From a virus: 64,000 nucleotides of DNA. A program made the position numbers and the translations under genes. The DNA is taken from the IMG/VR virus record IMGVR_UViG_3300033047_000016, one strand, 5' to 3'. The notes beneath the pieces were generated by a model. The model was given only the letters and a program-made list of their open reading frames with translations. It had not been told where the DNA came from and did not search any database. This document shows, in pieces, positions 4,864-38,931 of the stretch. Within the stretch, counting starts at the first letter, position 1; each line of letters starts with the position of its first letter.

Positions 4864-6449
4864 TCATCCAATATCTGATTTACCGTGACAGAGAATCCTT
4901 GGTCTGTCAACGTTCCCGTGGTCTCGTATGTGACATAGTACGGGGGTGGGGTCGTAGAGTTGCGTACACGTACCTGAAGGGCCTTATCCGCTGTGTAGTT
5001 TACCGTCTGAGAAAATGTGGTGGTGGCCTCAATCTGGTTAAACAACACAATGGAATCCGTGGTGTTCTCAATGAATACGCGACTTCCGGCGATTAGTCCA
5101 GTCAAAGTTATTGTAACGGAGTTATTTACAGTGACGGTTCCTGCGGAAGAATTTCGAATGATCGCTTCTGCAATGTTGCCACCATTGATAACGTTGAGCA
5201 CCAAGTTGCCCGTCCCACCTGCCGGATTAAAATGGATCGCGGCGTCAGTGCCTGTTCCAGAATATCCGGTAAATGTGTTGTTGTCAAACGTGTATGTTCC
5301 GGCGGTGTCTATTTCAATAGCGTGACCGGTACCGGCAGACACAAAGGTGCTGTCGGTTATAAGATTTGGCGTATCAGACAACAGTGCCGGAGTTACTGCG
5401 CTGGCTTCTACCAATATGTCGGTAATGTCTGCGCCATTCTGAGTCACCAATTCAGTGCCACGAAAAGTGGTGCCAATAATGGTGGTGCTTGCTTGGAACG
5501 TGCTGGGGCCAATGCCTGTGAATGTCCCTGTTGTCAGATTGAATGTAGGGTCATTGGCGTCAACAATTACGCGACCTTTGTTGGTCGTCCCAAGTGCCGT
5601 CAAAGATACGTTAGTCCAGTTGCATACGGTACTTGCGTGATCAATAATAATCTGGCTGAAGTCGCTGGCTGCATGTATGGTATCAGCAAAAGAGATAGAT
5701 ACGTCTGAGACTTCAAATCTGGCGAGTGTCGCTGTGCCTGCGTTGTTTCTCCCAATGGCAAACGTGCCTTGAAGTTCAAAACCAGCACCACTGGCTGTAA
5801 GGATTCCCCAGCGATTTGTTACGTTGTCGCTGTCTATAGAAAAGTCTGCAAAGTTGCATGGATCATCACTAGCGTCACCAGCCGAGATAAGTTCTCCGGC
5901 GGTGAGGAAACCACCAAGACCATAGCGCATAGCGTCGATGCCGACGTTTGCACCCTTGACCGATGCCGTGGTATTCAATCCACCACCAAAAACTTGCGGG
6001 TTGGCTGCTGGGGTTCCGGTTAGCGTTCTGTAAGGCTCTGCGGCGTTTGCCGTACGCAGCGCATAATCTATCGGGTAGCAACGTGCAACACGGCCACCGG
6101 CACCGTAGGTGTCATTACCTTCCACGTGGTACTGGCAATAAGCGCCAGTCGCTGACCCAATCAAGACAGAAGCACCCTTCAGAGCGCGTGTATCGGTCAG
6201 TCCGGGCGTAGCTGCAAAATGCCATATCCACACGTGATCGCCAGCACCGAGTGTTATCCCCGCACCGTTATCGAACATTAAGCCTTTATCAGCATTTGTT
6301 ATCTGTTTGTCTACGCAATTTGTTCCTTGCATGGACAAGTCTGGTGATGCCGACAATCCGGCACCACCGCCACCATAGGCAACAAAGCCCGTGGTAGCCT
6401 CAGAAAGAGTGATGTCTGTTAAGTCTTCAGTGTAGCTTGGTACCGCCAT
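4860..6449 (-). CDS. Virion structural protein with probable beta-helix
   Basis: 529 aa, T/G/A-rich, repeated TFTG/TFVS/TF.N beta-helix-like motifs. Confidence 0.6.
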   Translation of the reverse strand: MAVPSYTEDLTDITLSEATTGFVAYGGGGAGLSASPDLSMQGTNCVDKQITNADKGLMFDNGAGITLGAGDHVWIWHFAATPGLTDTRALKGASVLIGSATGAYCQYHVEGNDTYGAGGRVARCYPIDYALRTANAAEPYRTLTGTPAANPQVFGGGLNTTASVKGANVGIDAMRYGLGGFLTAGELISAGDASDDPCNFADFSIDSDNVTNRWGILTASGAGFELQGTFAIGRNNAGTATLARFEVSDVSISFADTIHAASDFSQIIIDHASTVCNWTNVSLTALGTTNKGRVIVDANDPTFNLTTGTFTGIGPSTFQASTTIIGTTFRGTELVTQNGADITDILVEASAVTPALLSDTPNLITDSTFVSAGTGHAIEIDTAGTYTFDNNTFTGYSGTGTDAAIHFNPAGGTGNLVLNVINGGNIAEAIIRNSSAGTVTVNNSVTITLTGLIAGSRVFIENTTDSIVLFNQIEATTTFSQTVNYTADKALQVRVRNSTTPPPYYVTYETTGTLTDQGFSVTVNQILDE

Positions 6450-12805: not shown

Positions 12806-13033
12806 TTAAAGTGTCTCTGGATCGTCGAAAAATCGTTCTGGATCATTGTCGTCACCAAAATGGGCAGCTTTAACTACTTCCGCCGCACTGACCCCAACCA
12901 AGTTTTTCAATTCTTCGAATGTTACTTGGCCATTTGCAAACTCCGCTACGGCGTCCAGCGCATCCGCGTCTAGCTCGTCAAAGTCTGCAAAGTCTTGATT
13001 TATACCACTAATTATTTTCATGACGTGGTGCAC
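12806..13033 (-). CDS. Small acidic hypothetical protein
   Basis: 75-aa ORF in operon after portal. Confidence 0.5.
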   Translation of the reverse strand: MHHVMKIISGINQDFADFDELDADALDAVAEFANGQVTFEELKNLVGVSAAEVVKAAHFGDDNDPERFFDDPETL

Positions 13034-13275
13034 ATAATGGGACCTAATCCCGTTGGGCAGTCATGTCGATTACAACTGTACGACATGGACCCTTTCAATT
13101 CTATCCCACACTTTGGGCATGTTGGTGAATTCAGCATCGGTGGTGCTGGATATGTTGGTGCCGGATAAAAATCGTCTCGTGGGTGCTCTAAATAATTATT
13201 ATGCTTCCGCTGCACCGCAACCAGTTCTTCTAATAGTTCTTCTATGCGCCGTAGCCTATCTGAAAGCTTACTCAT
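13018..13275 (-). CDS. Hypothetical protein with CxxC...Cx4C zinc motif
   Basis: CPKCG...YSCNRHDCP; start overlaps the portal stop. Confidence 0.55.
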   Translation of the reverse strand: MSKLSDRLRRIEELLEELVAVQRKHNNYLEHPRDDFYPAPTYPAPPMLNSPTCPKCGIELKGSMSYSCNRHDCPTGLGPIMCTTS

Positions 13276-30477: not shown

Positions 30478-30885
30478 AGGTGAGGGATTCTGTTGCTAGG
30501 TTCCCTCGGACCCCCTCACTGATCGGCGTCTGCATTTAATCCTTACGGATTAAGCTGCGATTGCCATTCCAGTAGGTGCTGCATTTACATTTGCTGCATT
30601 TACTTAAGTTCACAGTCCTAAGACTATTTGCCCAGATAACGTTTAGGCCAACCCGACACGCCGCTTTCCCTATTCCATCCTGTCGATCCTAGTTCGCCCC
30701 CATCAAAAGACCCTTTCGAGGCATCGCCAGAATACCCCGCATGGAGCACCTAACCTCTTCCCTCTCCGCGAGAAACGGATGTGAGCGTAATGTCTCTCCC
30801 TCGTAAGGGCCTTATGGTGGAGGCGTCGGGTACTGCCCCCGAGTCCAGAAATGTCTTCACGATTGAAGATATACGTGTGTTTCGT
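30478..30885 (-). ncRNA. ssrA: Two-piece (circularly permuted) tmRNA; tag AANVNAAPTGMAIAA
   Basis: Acceptor piece ...GACTCGGGGGCAGTACCCGACGCCTCCACCA ends at 30815; coding piece starts GGGGGCGAACTAGGATCGAC at 30701 (G3-U70); tag ORF 30597-30550 ends AIAA-stop; AACCTAGCAACAGAA motif. Confidence 0.92.
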
Positions 30886-30940
30886 ACGAACCAATATAGA
30901 GTGATTCGTTTAGTATGTCAACCTCTGAAAAGCCTCAAAG

Positions 30941-32359: not shown

Positions 32360-33228
32360 AGTAGCCTGAGAATACAGCGTACAGTGAGAACCTTCTGGAC
32401 CGTACCAAACCCGTTTCACAGGGCATGTTAATCCTTCTTCCACATGCGTGCCGAAGCTACACACGTAGTCCTCAATGGTGCGATTTATAAAGGTCTCGCG
32501 TTTGACCTGTCACCATGTGCTACTCGTCTGTTGATCCTCCGCCTGCCTTCCGACAGTTATTCACCGCTAAGCGCTTACGTTTTCTCTTCAAACAAACATC
32601 GTCGCCTTGCGAGCTATGATGCACCGTGTTCCAAAAGGCACGGTATTAACCACCTTTCACACATGACCGAACTAGTCTTTTGCTTTTATATGACGTGAAG
32701 GATTTGAACCCTCTCCGACAGCGTTGAAAGCTGTTGCTCTACCAATGAGCTAACGAAGTTAACCCCAAAGATGTGCTAGTCCGATTGCTCCGAAGGTTTT
32801 TGACCCTAAGAATACAACACACCTCATGTCTTTCGGCTTGCGACCTAATTAACGGCTCTTCAGGTCTCCGGGGATTATCTCCCCTTATTCCCTTGAACTG
32901 CATGCTGCCCTCTGCCGCGAAGCATCGAACTAGTCATGCCACCTATTGATCATCATCGCTCGTCCGGCTGGCATGTCATGAGCGCAGTCGCCAAACTGCT
33001 TCTATCCACCCTTTTGGGGCTTCAATTATCCTTTCGGACACATGACCCAGACTTACCGACTATCGCCACTCTGGTAAGTGACGCACAACGCTACGGATAT
33101 TCCCGGCGTCGTCGATCTAGGCTTGCATAAATGGACTGTTTCCAGCGGATACTTGGGAAGCACCCTTTGGGCCTGTTGCCAGACTTACCCTTGAAGACCT
33201 CATGCGGCCTTATTCCCGAAGGAACTCC
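32360..33228 (-). ncRNA. GOLLD-like large structured RNA (~870 nt) with embedded tRNA-like domain
   Basis: Own promoter TTGACA-17-TAGAAC (33260-33232); ORF-free; many GNRA/UUCG hairpins; blocks GUGUGUUGUAUUC..GCACAUC, GCAAAAGACUAG, GAAAGGUGGUUAAUAC, CGUAAGCGCUUAGC, GAGUAG, GGUUCUCA..UAUUCUCAGGC recalled as GOLLD-like; tRNA-island context. Confidence 0.65.
32690..32759 (-). pseudogene. tRNA-like domain with TCA (opal-reading) anticodon inside the GOLLD-like RNA
   Basis: GCTC-ATTGGTA-GAGC, ACAGC-TTTCAAC-GCTGT, GAGGG-TTCAAAT-CCTTC; acceptor stem only 3 bp, no CCA. Confidence 0.7.
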
Positions 33229-34913: not shown

Positions 34914-35255
34914 TTAACTCTTTGAGCCTTCGGGTTCAGTTGCTACTTCATTTTCGAATGGGCCAAAACCTAACGTGTTTCCAGTGTCTCCTATGCACAC
35001 CAGTCCATCGTTTCTAATGAACACATATGTGTAGCTCCCAGAGATTGGGTTTACCCAGAATTCAAATCCCATGATTCCATTGTTCTTGTATTTCAAACTG
35101 ACGCCGGACATGAGTTGGCGCTCGTTGTGTGGTTCACCGGATAACTCCGCCACCATAGCGTCACGATTGGGCCAACACCCATTTGGTATTGCTTGTGCGT
35201 TAGCTGATACAGCGGTGGCTCCGGCGATTATTATTGCAAGAATTAGGTTCTTCAT
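34914..35255 (-). CDS. Exported hypothetical protein (Rhodobacteraceae-type C..R..L...E...G...E.W....GSYT...G..C)
   Basis: Signal peptide, two Cys, AAGGAG RBS. Confidence 0.7.
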   Translation of the reverse strand: MKNLILAIIIAGATAVSANAQAIPNGCWPNRDAMVAELSGEPHNERQLMSGVSLKYKNNGIMGFEFWVNPISGSYTYVFIRNDGLVCIGDTGNTLGFGPFENEVATEPEGSKS

Positions 35256-35350
35256 GGTTCACTCCTTTCACTAAGATAGGATCAGTGTAGCACGATCTTC
35301 CGATCCTGTAAAATTGTGCGGCTTATGTGTGGGTCACTGCGCTCATAACT

Positions 35351-35436
35351 ACTACAACAGCGGGTATCGAAATCCGCGCCTCCGGGCTAAAATGCAAATG
35401 CTGGTCCCAGCGATCTTCCACTAATCCATGTTGTAG
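35351..35436 (-). pseudogene. Degenerate tRNA-like element with 19-nt anticodon loop, no CCA
   Basis: CTACAACA/TGTTGTAG acceptor, GATT-AGTGGAA-GATC D-arm, CTGGG/CCCGG stem, TTCGAT T-loop. Confidence 0.5.
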
Positions 35437-35616
35437 TGCTTCCGTCCAATGTAGTCCAGAGCATACTCATCTGCCTTATCTCTTCTGTTCACCAACACCG
35501 CCTGTCAGGCGTTTCACCTGCTCAACGGTTTTTAAGCTTTTGCATTGTTACGTTGTTGATTTCTCTGAAGCCTTATCTCAGGTTTTCTGCCCCTTTTCCA
35601 AAGGACTTCCACGGTC

Positions 35617-35964
35617 TTAACCGGAGACAATGATCGTGTATCCCCTTATCGTATGTATTCCTAACGTAACCGGCTTGTTCCAGCCTGCACGTTTCGCCTC
35701 TTTCATGGAGGCGAAGAAGTCTAAATCACACATGACCGCCGCCATTGAGTTTCTTTCGGCGTAGTCGTGAATGTTTACGCGTTTGGGCCACGGTACCGGT
35801 CGAAATGGCATTATATCGAACGCTGGCCACCAACGATTTTGAATTCCAAATACCCCAGACCAAAAGCCGTCTTCGTCTTTCTTTGTTAAGCCTAATTCGT
35901 GGACGTAAATGTTATTTTGATGAACATCTACCGGTCTGTTTTTCTTATCCAGATAAATCCTCAT
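35617..35964 (-). CDS. Hypothetical protein
   Basis: 115 aa, AAGGAG RBS; F.S..EA.RAGWNKP motif. Confidence 0.7.
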   Translation of the reverse strand: MRIYLDKKNRPVDVHQNNIYVHELGLTKKDEDGFWSGVFGIQNRWWPAFDIMPFRPVPWPKRVNIHDYAERNSMAAVMCDLDFFASMKEAKRAGWNKPVTLGIHTIRGYTIIVSG

Positions 35965-36195
35965 GGTTACTCCTTATTAATTGGCTCTCGTGGCAGGATT
36001 AAACATACACTAAGAAAGGTTTCGAACCCTCTCGTTTCTTTGTCTCCACAAACTGAAATCACAAACCAAGCCGACAGCGCTGTCCGCACCGGATTCGTTT
36101 AAACGTTTGCTTCACCTGCGTCTTGCGGTAGACAACCGCCTGTCCTGATCGGACGACACGAAACTCGGAGCAATCCTCTGGATCACTCATAAACT

Positions 36196-36270
36196 TGGAG
36201 ACGCGAGGGGGAATCGAACCCACCTTAACTGATTTTGCAGACCAGCGCCTATCCATTCGGCATCCGCGTC
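36196..36270 (-). tRNA. trnC: tRNA-Cys(GCA)
   Basis: CT-GCA-AA, U73-CCA. Confidence 0.88.
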
Positions 36271-36289
36271 GTTGTGGTGCCTGCACCAC

Positions 36290-37135
36290 ATTAGTTTGTT
36301 AGGTAGGCTGTTTACTCTGAAACGCCCAGAAAGTCACGCACATTGGGTCCACTATCACTTGGCATACTTGCGGCTAGTTACTCTCCGACTTGATCTAGTA
36401 ACTCATACTTGCTGACGACGACCAACATGATCGCGGTATGGCGTTCGAGTTATATAGCGATAAGAAGGGTGAAGCACTGCGGCGTCGAGCCTCAGAGGAT
36501 GGGGTAGGTACGTTCCCCGCTGTTCTGTTACACACATAGTACGACACCCTATCACTGCTCCCCGGAGTCGAACCGGGGCACCATTTAGCCTCACGTTTTG
36601 CAAACGCTACGCAACAGTTGGGTTTTCTGTCTGGCCTGACTTCGACCCGGTTGGCCAACCTTAAGGTGTCGAACAATGTGTGTTTGAGGTGCTGGTTAGA
36701 CTTGATTATTGGGGTCCCCAACCCAACCACATATCCCCGTGGCAGGCGGGTGCGTTGTTAACGGTGCCAACCCATTTCCGCTGCATTACATAGACACCAT
36801 CCAACCACGGTCGATGTCGGTATATGCAGATGGCGCGGTGTGAGACACGCGCCAATTCTATTTCGTGTGGTCAATTAACGAGGACCATCTGTCTCGTGCC
36901 TTGATTATTGGACCAATACTTTCGTATCAGACATGTTCGGGACTTATTCGTTAAGGCGTATACGCCGTATTGTGTTAGGCCATGCCGCGCGACGGCTGTT
37001 TAACCCTGCCGGTCGCTCGCAGGGTACCACTATTATTTCACAGGCGGGCCTTCGTTCACGAAGCAGTGATCCCTCTATGGGGCTGAGCACATCTACCGAC
37101 GCACACCCGATCCTATTTTGGTGCAACGAAGTCAC
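36290..37135 (-). ncRNA. Unclassified large structured RNA region
   Basis: No credible ORF; long-range helices 37088-37100/36816-36828, 37099-37109/36747-36755 and 36662-36671/36542-36551; internal T-arm CCCGG-TTCGACT-CCGGG. Confidence 0.5.
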
Positions 37136-37271
37136 ACAATTTATTGGTGTCTCGGCGGGGAATCGAACCTCCGCAGCACGGGTAATTACTTCCCGCTCAT
37201 GCTCCCGTCCACTTCACTCTGCCTGTCAGCGACCGGTCGCTTCGGGCTTTGTTGCAGGGCTAGACAAACTT

Positions 37272-37348
37272 TGGTGGTACCAGTTGGGATCGAACCAACC
37301 TACTCTCGGATATGAGCCAAGCGCTTGAACCAACTCAGCTATGGTACC
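37272..37348 (-). tRNA. tRNA with CAT anticodon (Met/Ile2)
   Basis: CT-CAT-AT, GGTACCA/TGGTACC, CCA. Confidence 0.85.
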
Positions 37349-37382
37349 ATTATTCTACTATTCAGTACCGGAGGACTGAATA

Positions 37383-37457
37383 TGGTAGGGAGGGCAGGAT
37401 ATGAGCCTGCACACACTGGGTATGACCCCAGCCGCTATTCTTTTTGCGTACCTCCCC
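37383..37457 (-). tRNA. Atypical tRNA with CAT in a non-canonical loop
   Basis: GGGGAGG/CCTCCCT acceptor, A-rich D-loop without GG, T-loop CTCATAT, ACCA. Confidence 0.55.
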
Positions 37458-37682
37458 GTGAAACACCTTTAGAGCATGCCGTGACGATCCATCGACGTGC
37501 ACCCAAAACACGACTGGTTCATCTTCATAACTTTGACGTCATTCTAACCGGCGCGCGGAGGAACTGACAAACCGCTACCGAATCACGACACACACTAAAA
37601 ATGTTTCATAATGAGTTATAGGGAATTTTCCTATACCTCACTATACTTTGCTATACTCCAGCCGCAGGCGGCTAGAGGTTCA

Positions 37683-37758
37683 TGGTGAAACGGGAAGGAA
37701 TTGAACCTTCGTCTTCGGTTTTTCAAACCGATGTGAGCACCAGCCTCACCACCGTTTC
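37683..37758 (-). tRNA. trnF: tRNA-Phe(GAA)
   Basis: TT-GAA-AA, CCA. Confidence 0.88.
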
Positions 37759-38014
37759 ATTAACAACATGATTATCGAGCTTTCGCTCTACAAATTGACG
37801 TATTCCCATAAGATTGGTTAAAGTACACCGCTCGAATACGTTCAGAACCCATTGGTTGTCAGTCAGGCAACCGGAATAAAATAACGTGGTGCGCTGGCCT
37901 TTCAGCCTTGCCATCCTACGGTCTGGGTAACTGTTTCCCTTTCCGTATCTCTAACCTAGTGACTGTCGTTTAGATCGTCAAGAGGTATTTTCGAATTCTT
38001 GTAGAAAGTTTTTC

Positions 38015-38090
38015 TGGTGCACTCGGCAGGACTTGCACCTGCACCCCCCACCTCAAACGGCAGGTATACTTGTAGTTATACGACGAGTAC
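38015..38090 (-). tRNA. Atypical tRNA (6-nt anticodon loop GTTTGA; Gln/Lys-like or pseudo)
   Basis: GTACTCG/CGAGTGC acceptor, GTAT/ATAC D stem, T-loop TGCAAGT, ACCA. Confidence 0.55.
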
Positions 38091-38091
38091 T

Positions 38092-38165
38092 TGGTGTCAC
38101 CGATCAGATTCGATACTGATGTTTCTCACACTAAAGGCGAGTGTCCTGTCTTAGACGAAAGCGAC
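38092..38165 (-). tRNA. tRNA with TTA (ochre-reading) anticodon, Glu-like body
   Basis: GTCT/GGAC D stem, CTCGC-CTTTAGT-GTGAG, ATCAG/CTGAT T stem with 8-nt loop, ACCA. Confidence 0.68.
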
Positions 38166-38250
38166 ATGATTGTTCTTTTTGGTGTGAAGCCCCGTACCAC
38201 TGACGTGGTCAGTACCGGAGGGCTTTGCGTACGTCACTGTGTGACTTAAC

Positions 38251-38327
38251 TGGTAGGGCATACGGGATTTGAACCCGTGTCCTCCGCATTGAAAGTGCAG
38301 CGTCCTAGACCGCTAGACCAATGCCCC
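38251..38327 (-). tRNA. trnE: tRNA-Glu(TTC)
   Basis: Canonical, CT-TTC-AA. Confidence 0.92.
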
Positions 38328-38359
38328 GAAATGTTCGTGATTCGGAGCCTCAGTGTTCC

Positions 38360-38527
38360 TTAATGGACGAGTTGTTTCTTTGTAGAAACTGGACCATCAT
38401 TAGAACATTGAAGTTCCGAGGTGGTCTCTCGTTCATCGGCATCATCCGCAAACGGATACGGCAGATAAGGTCGCGCTGGCATTCCACCCATGGGGGAATT
38501 AAACATAATGGTTTTAGTAGTCGTCAT
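38360..38527 (-). CDS. Small hypothetical protein, 55 aa
   Basis: AGGAGGT RBS and upstream TTGACA..GAATC promoter. Confidence 0.5.
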   Translation of the reverse strand: MTTTKTIMFNSPMGGMPARPYLPYPFADDADERETTSELQCSNDGPVSTKKQLVH

Positions 38528-38631
38528 ATCATTCACCTCCTATGGTGGTTGGTTTGTAGGTTCTGTATACGCAGGTGATTCTGGTATGTCAAGAACTTTC
38601 TCGTGGTAAGGGTCAGAAACATTATCAAACA

Positions 38632-38931
38632 TCATTCTACGTATCCCTCTTTGCGGGCAACATCACGCCAACACGCAACCTTCTGCATTTTAGCCTTAAT
38701 GGCATCATGGTCCCGAGCAATGTTGATGTCTTCTTCGTCCCACAACATCTGGACGATTCCCAAGACATCATTAAATTCGGCGCTAACGCGCTCAAAATTG
38801 GATAGGGCATCGCCGTTCTGTCTGCCAAACACCCGATCCATTCCAAACTGCTGGGCCTTGATTGCGATCTGCGCCAGTTCCGACGCTTCTTCGGCAAGTT
38901 TACCAAGCAGGTATTGTTCATTCGTCAGCAT
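38632..38931 (-). CDS. MazG-like nucleotide pyrophosphohydrolase
   Basis: L.KLAEEASELAQ...KA..FG......N.ER...E..DV...V.ML. Confidence 0.7.
   Translation of the reverse strand: MLTNEQYLLGKLAEEASELAQIAIKAQQFGMDRVFGRQNGDALSNFERVSAEFNDVLGIVQMLWDEEDINIARDHDAIKAKMQKVACWRDVARKEGYVE

Follow-up and report, generated by a model that had tools for sequence, protein, structure and literature searches.

About 850 nt of minus-strand DNA between tRNA-Cys and a tRNA-like element (positions 36290-37135 of a 64,000-nt window, the whole stretch of DNA analyzed here, from IMG/VR record IMGVR_UViG_3300033047_000016) raise the question of whether a phage tRNA operon specifies here one giant noncoding RNA (ncRNA) or several smaller ones. 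An original prediction made from the sequence alone had proposed an undescribed large phage RNA or, in an alternative wording, a cluster of ncRNAs, and our results indicate that the latter is the better description. The locus holds new structured RNA families of a known kind, the RNAs of phage tRNA islands, and not one giant RNA. We interpret the tract as a chain of independent RNA modules in a polycistronic phage tRNA operon, including two conserved small RNAs, modules A and B, and give this interpretation a probability of roughly 55%. To judge from the comparison of related phages, the real signal is comparative and restricted to positions 36865-36305, and each module is an undescribed, conserved and structured RNA family, absent from Rfam and known from DNA alone.

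A 144,372-bp ENA scaffold with 100% identity is the window's own contig, which is also on record in JGI and Logan assemblies. The source is a large uncultured phage of about 144 kb, and the tract sits within its island of tRNA, transfer-messenger RNA (tmRNA) and GOLLD RNA genes. No relative was found in a curated collection of 50,697 phage genomes using BLASTN of the region and TBLASTN of the 587-aa neighboring protein. Relatives were found through RlaP and terminase searches, homologues of the 99-aa and RlaP proteins, and scans for the conserved core, which gave L001 (IMG/VR), L030 (JGI) and L022, L031, L033, L034, L037, L038 and L040 (Logan/JGI). Searches with the 428-aa and 99-aa proteins alone retrieved no related loci, and when core patterns were run against IMG/VR, JGI metagenome contigs and GTDB genomes, the L001 contig and L030 were the only finds. 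Matches to a gapped pattern in L035 and L036 were discarded as chance, having neither a model match nor tRNAs. The same island recurs in the scanned loci, with tRNA-Glu and tRNA-Phe (in most of them), tRNA-Met and then tmRNA, and tRNAs or tRNA-like elements flank modules A and B in every locus. The parts of the tract and its borders are as follows, from 5′ to 3′.

37270-37145, minus strand: tRNA-like element, the 5′ boundary of the tract; it has an acceptor stem and a T arm, carries a large internal insert and ends in an encoded ACCA
37135-36866, minus strand: 5′ segment of about 270 nt, which holds the first CAATAATCAAG, the upstream partners of two predicted long-range helices and a 63-aa open reading frame (ORF)
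36865-36684, minus strand: module A, about 180 nt, with helices P1-P6 and a conserved single-stranded tail (149 bits with covariance model R1)
36671-36542, minus strand: closed four-way domain with closing helix CGACACC/GGUGUCG, common only to L022
36526-36305, minus strand: module B, a pseudoknotted RNA of about 215 nt in the 3′ third of the tract (nhmmer profile)
36290-36273, minus strand: perfect 7-bp hairpin directly upstream of tRNA-Cys, part of a 22-nt insertion
36270-36196, minus strand: tRNA-Cys(GCA), the 3′ boundary of the tract (ARAGORN and Rfam, 42.3 bits)
35616-35433, minus strand: module D, a third conserved ORF-free block, with GAGAUAAGGC twice

The first sign of module A was an 86-nt block common to the window and L001 by BLAST. 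Covariance model R1 was built from a structure-blind MAFFT alignment of six loci folded with RNAalifold, in which 21 of the 41 RNAalifold pairs already display compensatory changes. R1 has exactly one match in the window, with none elsewhere even with filters off, and a total of 8 copies in 7 phages; the 7 copies outside the window lie in 6 loci and score 70-194 bits (one each in L001, L022, L030, L034 and L038, and two in tandem in L031). L033, L037, L040 and other loci gave no R1 match. Across the 8 copies, 91.1% of the cells are paired, as opposed to 37-54% when partners are slid by 1-3 columns, and compensatory (double) changes affect 24 of 41 pairs, as opposed to 4-10 in the slid controls. 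None of 500 shuffles of the 8-copy alignment reached any of these measures, and the outcome was the same with 7 copies. Most of the covariation signal is carried by P1, P2 and P3.

36854-36831, minus strand: hairpin P1, with 7 of 7 pairs changed on both sides across the 8 copies
36829-36824 with 36786-36781, minus strand: helix P2, which encloses hairpin P3
36818-36793, minus strand: hairpin P3, with the invariant loop GUGGUU (36808-36803)
36781-36752, minus strand: 30-nt invariant stretch GGCGGAAAUGGGyUGGCACCGwUAACAACG, comprising a junction and P4 (the feature spans 36781-36748)
36742-36709, minus strand: hairpins P5 and P6, read by eye from the sequences and partly counted as RNAalifold helix 8
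36708-36688, minus strand: unpaired, conserved 3′ tail (…AAGnCUAACCAGCACC), kept in 7 of 8 copies

The substitutions follow the helices closely. P2 reads CUGCAU/AUGCAG in the window, CCAUGC/GCAUGG in L022 and L031, and CCACAC/GUGUGG in L001 and L034, and the RNAalifold helices of the P2/P3 region (helices 2-4) are 94-96% paired with compensatory changes in 13 of 18 pairs. A longer version of P1 with a conserved loop is found in three relatives. The 30-nt stretch is the same in the six seed copies but for two positions, one of which covaries as U-A in the window and L038 and C-G in the others; P4 itself is GGGU/ACCC in the window, with an 18-nt loop. P5 is CCAC/GUGG in the window and CUCC/GGAG, CUUC/GAAG, CUACG/CGUAG or CACA/UGUG in relatives, while P6 takes the forms GGGUU/AACCC, GGGCG/CGUCC or CGGGA/UCCCG. 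RNAalifold helices 5 and 6 are probably wrong, as the local P5 hairpin (with P6) fits the variation better. In the tail, AACCA (36697-36693) is complementary to UGGUU of the P3 loop, and GACCA of L031 still allows a U.G pair, so that a pseudoknot between the P3 loop and the 3′ tail is possible; no double change in this pairing was seen among the copies.

One G.U pair is invariant in 8 of 8 copies and one U.G pair is kept in 6 of 7, being U-A in L038, and the relatives differ in module A by indels of 1, 4 and 10 nt. The invariant G.U pair and the largely kept U.G pair, together with the non-triplet indels, indicate that the minus strand acts here as RNA and not through a protein. The L031 paralogue and L038, both outside model building, keep P1-P3 with new pair types, and the flanking intergenic DNA is no longer alignable in phages that keep the stretch and the pairs of module A. 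The L031 paralogue (12978-13161, 70 bits) is itself a natural domain-swap variant: it keeps P1-P3, P5, P6 and the tail but has unrelated sequence in place of the invariant 30-nt stretch and P4.

Module B occurs in 7 phages, namely the window, L001, L022, L031, L033, L034 and the held-out L037. Its fold is defined by the following elements.

36518-36501, minus strand: hairpin H1, a 4-bp stem GGGG/CCCC whose loop ACGUAC (36513-36508) pairs with 36341-36336
36351-36348 with 36499-36496, minus strand: long-range helix NCCN/NGGN, in which both outer pairs vary
36351-36309, minus strand: 3′ end of module B, made of the long-range strand, the pseudoknot strand and a conserved U-rich box ending …CAGAGUAAACA

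The H1 stem has six different sequences, the relatives having GUGG/CCAC, GAGG/UCUC, GGUG/CACC, GGGA/UCCC or GGAA/UUCC. The pseudoknot joins the H1 loop (ACGUNC) with GNNCGU about 170 nt downstream (GUGCGU, 36341-36336, in the window) and is paired in 7 of 7 phages, with U.G, G.U or U-A at position 4 and A-U or C-G at position 5. The long-range helix is GUCA/UGAC in L037, and the window forms 3 of its 4 pairs, with U.U at the inner end. The U-rich box occurs once each in the four loci that match a degenerate pattern, which the window copy, 1 nt shorter, escapes. A remnant of this terminal box (…UUUCAGAGAAAACA…) is found directly upstream of module A in L038 (7131-7160), where the rest of B and tRNA-Cys are missing, which suggests rearrangement among modules. 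On the other side of tRNA-Cys, module D follows it by 26-46 nt in L001, L022, L031 and L037; RNAalifold predicts 22 pairs from four sequences, 6 of them with compensatory changes, and module D is probably a third RNA family of the locus.

The tract contains no credible ORF between the tRNA-like element and tRNA-Cys, as had been noticed initially. The longest minus-strand ORFs have 111 aa and 63 aa, both from GTG, and have no Pfam match; the gene calls of three public assemblies of this phage include none in the tract. No conserved reading frame with a codon-like substitution pattern was found either, the relatives differing by non-triplet indels. Rfam 15 was searched at gathering score and at E<=10 with the whole region and with isolated modules, and yielded only tRNA matches and wrong-strand noise at E<=10 (35900-37500, module A alone, and A plus B of L031). 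In agreement with the initial remark that signatures of RNase P, the signal recognition particle (SRP) RNA and 6S RNA were missing, none of these models matched, nor did ROOL, HEARO, OLE, raiA, manA, tmRNA, group I/II introns or T-box; GOLLD, ROOL and everything else in Rfam 15 were unmatched at E<10. Likenesses seen by eye to RNase P CR-I/P4, group I P4-P6, group II domain V and the glutamine riboswitch were dropped, the pairings not being conserved and having no support in Rfam.

A single giant RNA of about 850 nt is not supported: no homologue of the 5′ 270 nt was found, and what is conserved falls into two modules that can occur apart. The 5′ segment is, on comparison with the relatives, a lineage-specific spacer or insertion without support as a conserved RNA: BLAST found no homologue of 37135-36866 in any related locus, local similarity to module A (z = 1.3) or to its paralogue is not significant, and similarity to the relatives' upstream segments gives z <= 0.5 except for one at 2.3, which lies within its shuffled range. 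The idea that 37144-36866 is a decayed duplicate of module A was rejected, as R1 finds no match there with filters off and no local alignment is significant. The 11-nt motif CAATAATCAAG does occur twice as reported (36910-36900 and 36711-36701), and the repeat is specific to this phage; about 0.09 such repeats are expected by arithmetic.

The two long-range complementarities that the original prediction had invoked are likewise present in the sequence, but they do not hold one RNA together, since their pairs are not conserved. The duplexes reach −15.3 and −14.3 kcal/mol, as compared with means of −10.8 and −11.1 and best values of −17.5 and −18.1 with shuffled upstream sequence, and none of 5 relatives has an equivalent duplex better than its own shuffles. 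Both compete for nucleotides of the covariation-supported P2 and P4. In L034 an upstream partner is impossible because only 18 nt separate tRNA-Met from module A. We therefore rejected these helices as conserved structure: they belong to this phage only, fall within the shuffle range and clash with P2 and P4.

The distribution of the two conserved modules speaks directly to their number. L030 and L038 have module A but not B, L033 and L037 have B but not A, and L040 has neither. In L034 the order is tRNA-Met, 18 nt, module A, 67 nt, tRNA-Ile (ARAGORN), module B and tRNA-Cys, so that tRNA processing sites bound module A and leave no room for a promoter of its own. As each module occurs without the other and a tRNA-Ile splits them in L034, we regard A and B as separable, and this modular pattern bounded by tRNA or tRNA-like processing sites favors separate small RNAs cut from a tRNA precursor. 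The surroundings of the tract include the following features.

37570-37541, minus strand: sigma-70-like promoter site (TTGTCA-18-TAGAAT), the best of the region, which precedes the weak tRNA match
37457-37386, minus strand: weak tRNA match (35.6 bits, no ARAGORN call)
37348-37272, minus strand: tRNA-Met, upstream of the tRNA-like element
32363-32825, minus-strand island: true GOLLD RNA (Rfam, 163 bits)
30479-30925, minus strand: tmRNA, permuted, of alphaproteobacterial type

Modules A and B share their strand with all 35 tRNA and tmRNA genes of the phage, all of them minus-strand genes located between 15.8 and 38.3 kb. The promoter-like site at 37570-37541 is likely the start of the operon segment that holds the tract, and no terminator-like site was found on the minus strand within 35200-38700. 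The homologues collected from related phages support at least two conserved folded RNAs by covariation, and together with the shared strand, the promoter-like site upstream and the lack of an internal terminator-like site this supports that part of the original prediction which placed undescribed phage RNAs in a tRNA operon. The operon would be transcribed from one or more upstream promoters, host RNase P would cut tRNAs and tRNA-like minihelices at their 5′ ends, and RNase P and the nucleases that process tRNA 3′ ends would probably release A and B as stable small RNAs, the RNase P site of tRNA-Cys setting the 3′ end of module B. The invariant unpaired nucleotides of both modules could then be binding surfaces for a conserved partner, most likely one in host translation or tRNA metabolism because the island contains tRNAs, tmRNA, GOLLD and, in its neighborhood, an RlaP-type nucleotidyltransferase of the RNA-repair type. 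Module B may act on the maturation of tRNA-Cys, to which it is tied.

A comparable organization is known from phage T4. The small RNAs RNAC and RNAD of T4 are cut from a tRNA precursor by tRNA-processing enzymes. They are non-tRNA RNAs from the T4 tRNA region whose role is unknown (PMC3014915). A and B resemble them as non-tRNA RNA genes within a phage tRNA cluster, co-oriented with and flanked by tRNAs, but the T4 RNAs were detected as transcripts whereas A and B come from DNA only, host clade and phage type differ, and kinship in sequence or structure is not expected.

Several observations weigh against this interpretation. All known members of A and B belong to one clade of related phages, with 7-8 sequences per family, and the shuffle statistics are inflated because these sequences share kinship. 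Module A is missing from three related phages and is therefore dispensable. The many local hairpins that had drawn attention to the tract do exist; their thermodynamic stability is not above that of shuffled controls (minimum free energy z of −0.64 for 37144-36866, −0.94 for 36866-36684 and −1.74 for the third sub-segment), and they are thus no evidence in themselves. Within the phage loci, the invariant segments gave no conserved antisense targets, and no partner was found; the function of A and B is proposed from context alone. Finally, 5 of 10 loci have A and B as neighbors in one and the same order (A, a tRNA or tRNA-like element, then B in 3 loci; A directly followed by B in 2), which fits a composite RNA too.

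Such a composite would be one large RNA built like GOLLD, in which A is the 5′ domain, B the 3′ domain and the variable linker a tRNA (L034), a tRNA-like domain (the window and L022) or nothing (L031 and L001), and which module D may extend. GOLLD (RF02032) is phage-encoded and found near tRNA islands, in one case downstream of a Met-tRNA; its 3′ domain is conserved, its 5′ domain varies, and a tRNA or tRNA-like insert can separate conserved domains (PMC12286853), so that the order A, tRNA or tRNA-like linker, B and the tRNA-island setting are both reminiscent of it. No terminator or promoter lies between A and B where they are adjacent, and B, tRNA-Cys and D seem to form a conserved cassette. 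However, each module is found without the other in two loci, and no conserved covarying A-B pairing was seen by eye, no systematic search for one having been made, while the long-range helices discussed above are not conserved. Moreover, the modules do not resemble the GOLLD model, which has no match at E<10 in 35900-37500 or in the isolated modules, although the true GOLLD of the same phage, about 3.5 kb away in the same island, scores 163 bits; GOLLD was matched in all five loci searched against Rfam (the window, L001, L022, L031 and L033). A covariance-model score of at least 150 bits, which we used as the cut-off for membership, leaves the tract outside the family. GOLLD is also a single RNA of at least 800 nt, whereas A and B have about 200 nt each and occur independently. 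We consider a composite RNA unlikely.

Somewhat less likely again is that A, B and perhaps D form a second GOLLD-like composite, with tRNAs or mimics of tRNAs in its variable linkers, acting as an RNA-only multimer that would hold or present tRNAs during infection, by analogy with GOLLD, ROOL and manA. ROOL and other ‘ornate’ RNAs of phages or prophages have many conserved helices and pseudoknots, a function yet to be assigned and no known protein partner, and some form RNA-only cages (PMC12286853; bioRxiv 10.64898/2026.07.01.735769). A and B are likewise phage structured RNAs with conserved helices, a pseudoknot in B and a possible one in A, but unlike ROOL and the manA motif (RF01745) they have no Rfam match. 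No conserved palindromic loop was found, GUUAAC of the P4 loop being present in only 3 of the 6 seed copies. A more modest version of this idea would have module A bind the NCCA end of a tRNA through its invariant UGGCACC bulge, in T-box fashion. The P4 region GGGy-UGGCACC-G resembles what we take to be the T-box core, GGG-UGGNACC-G with a helix followed by a bulge, a likeness that we treat as a lead only. Module A differs from T-boxes in having no Stem I, specifier loop or terminator and no Rfam T-box match at E<10, and in not lying upstream of an aminoacyl-tRNA-related gene.

An improbable alternative makes module B a cis-acting structured 5′ leader of tRNA-Cys, acting on its transcription, RNase P processing or stability, with module A unrelated to it. 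Module B ends 35 nt from tRNA-Cys in the window and 6-12 nt from it in relatives, so that 6 of 7 loci fall within 6-35 nt, and every copy of it has a tRNA-Cys homologue downstream; conservation is highest in the U-rich box that directly precedes the tRNA. On the contrary, about 460 nt separate B from tRNA-Cys in L033, no terminator-like expression platform is present, and we know of no precedent for a 215-nt pseudoknotted tRNA leader. The box was also rejected as a sigma-70 promoter: its spacer varies between 12 and 19 nt, unlike that of such promoters, it occurs once per genome, and it fails a consensus scan.

We regard as very improbable the view that the tract is non-functional debris, left over from tRNA genes that have decayed and from the spacers of a tRNA array. 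Remnants resembling tRNAs are present (the minihelix at 36619-36553 described below and the weak match at 37457-37386), the 5′ 270 nt have neither homologue nor excess stability, and three relatives lack module A. This view nevertheless fits 37135-36866 only, since the invariant 30-nt stretch and many compensatory changes persist in module A while the flanking intergenic DNA is unalignable, and likewise for module B. That the tract encodes one or more small proteins has a negligible chance of being right: minus-strand ORFs of 63-111 aa, such as the two GTG ORFs, are present, but they run across conserved helices, match nothing in Pfam and were not called in the three assemblies, the relatives differ by the 1-, 4- and 10-nt indels, and substitutions keep base pairs and not codons.

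The locus adds two, probably three, families that are well supported by covariation and absent from Rfam to phage tRNA islands, which are emerging as reservoirs of structured RNAs with unknown function such as GOLLD, ROOL and T4 RNAC and RNAD; here they lie beside GOLLD and a phage tmRNA. The clade that carries them consists of uncultured phages of about 140 kb, in which modular gain, loss, duplication and interleaving with tRNAs constitute a natural experiment on the production of such RNAs, presumably by tRNA-processing enzymes, and on their requirements. Partners could be sought by way of the invariant 30-nt surface of module A and the strict linkage of module B to tRNA-Cys. Very large collections yield no more than 7-8 sequences per family, and the general importance of these rare families is accordingly uncertain.

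Between modules A and B, the window and L022 share about 170 nt after module A, a piece that L031 and L001 lack entirely. Independent minimum free energy folds of the window and L022 give the same stem-closed four-way architecture for the domain at 36671-36542, which contains the following element.

36619-36553, minus strand: tRNA-like minihelix, a 6-bp acceptor-like stem and the T arm CCCCGG-UUCGACU-CCGGGG

The T stem of the minihelix covaries, as CCCCGG/CCGGGG in the window and GCACGG/CCGUGC in L022. It has no D or anticodon arm and no encoded CCA, and neither ARAGORN nor Rfam calls it as a tRNA (RF00005). The corresponding place in L034 and L030, about 70 nt after module A, is taken by a tRNA or tRNA-like element. 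In YrlA, a bacterial Y RNA, a module closed by a stem combines an acceptor-like stem with a canonical T arm and lacks an anticodon arm, and the inserted domain resembles it in its T-arm/acceptor module closed by a terminal stem, as predicted in the window and L022. It differs in having no Rfam Y-RNA match and in being an insertion in two phages only; the candidate Ro-binding motif GUCGAAG is absent from L022, the sole homologue. The domain also contains a 12-nt palindrome, GGTTGGCCAACC (36660-36649, minus strand), which L022 shares without a change; a hairpin is predicted for it, but it could also mediate dimerization. The tRNA-Met (5035-5111) and tRNA-Ile (5382-5457) of L034 are ARAGORN calls below the Rfam tRNA gathering score, and both may be non-canonical.

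At the borders of the tract, the tRNA-like element at 37145-37270 is called by neither ARAGORN nor Rfam and was recognized from its sequence and fold; L031 has a partial homologue of it without the CCA. The 7-bp hairpin inserted before tRNA-Cys belongs to this phage only and is missing from the alignments with L001, L022 and L031. It is terminator-like on the plus strand only, where a T run follows it, and no plus-strand gene lies close by. Two protein-coding neighbors complete the locus.

35617-35964, minus strand: 115-aa ORF without a Pfam match
38632-38931, minus strand: 99-aa protein, two homologues of which are named NTP pyrophosphatase (MazG-like) by JGI

In comparison with L001, L022, L031 and L037, the 115-aa ORF and its flanks are an insertion between tRNA-Cys and module D. 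The 99-aa MazG-like protein has 53 metagenome relatives, and more distant phages carry it in DNA-replication modules, away from the tRNA island.

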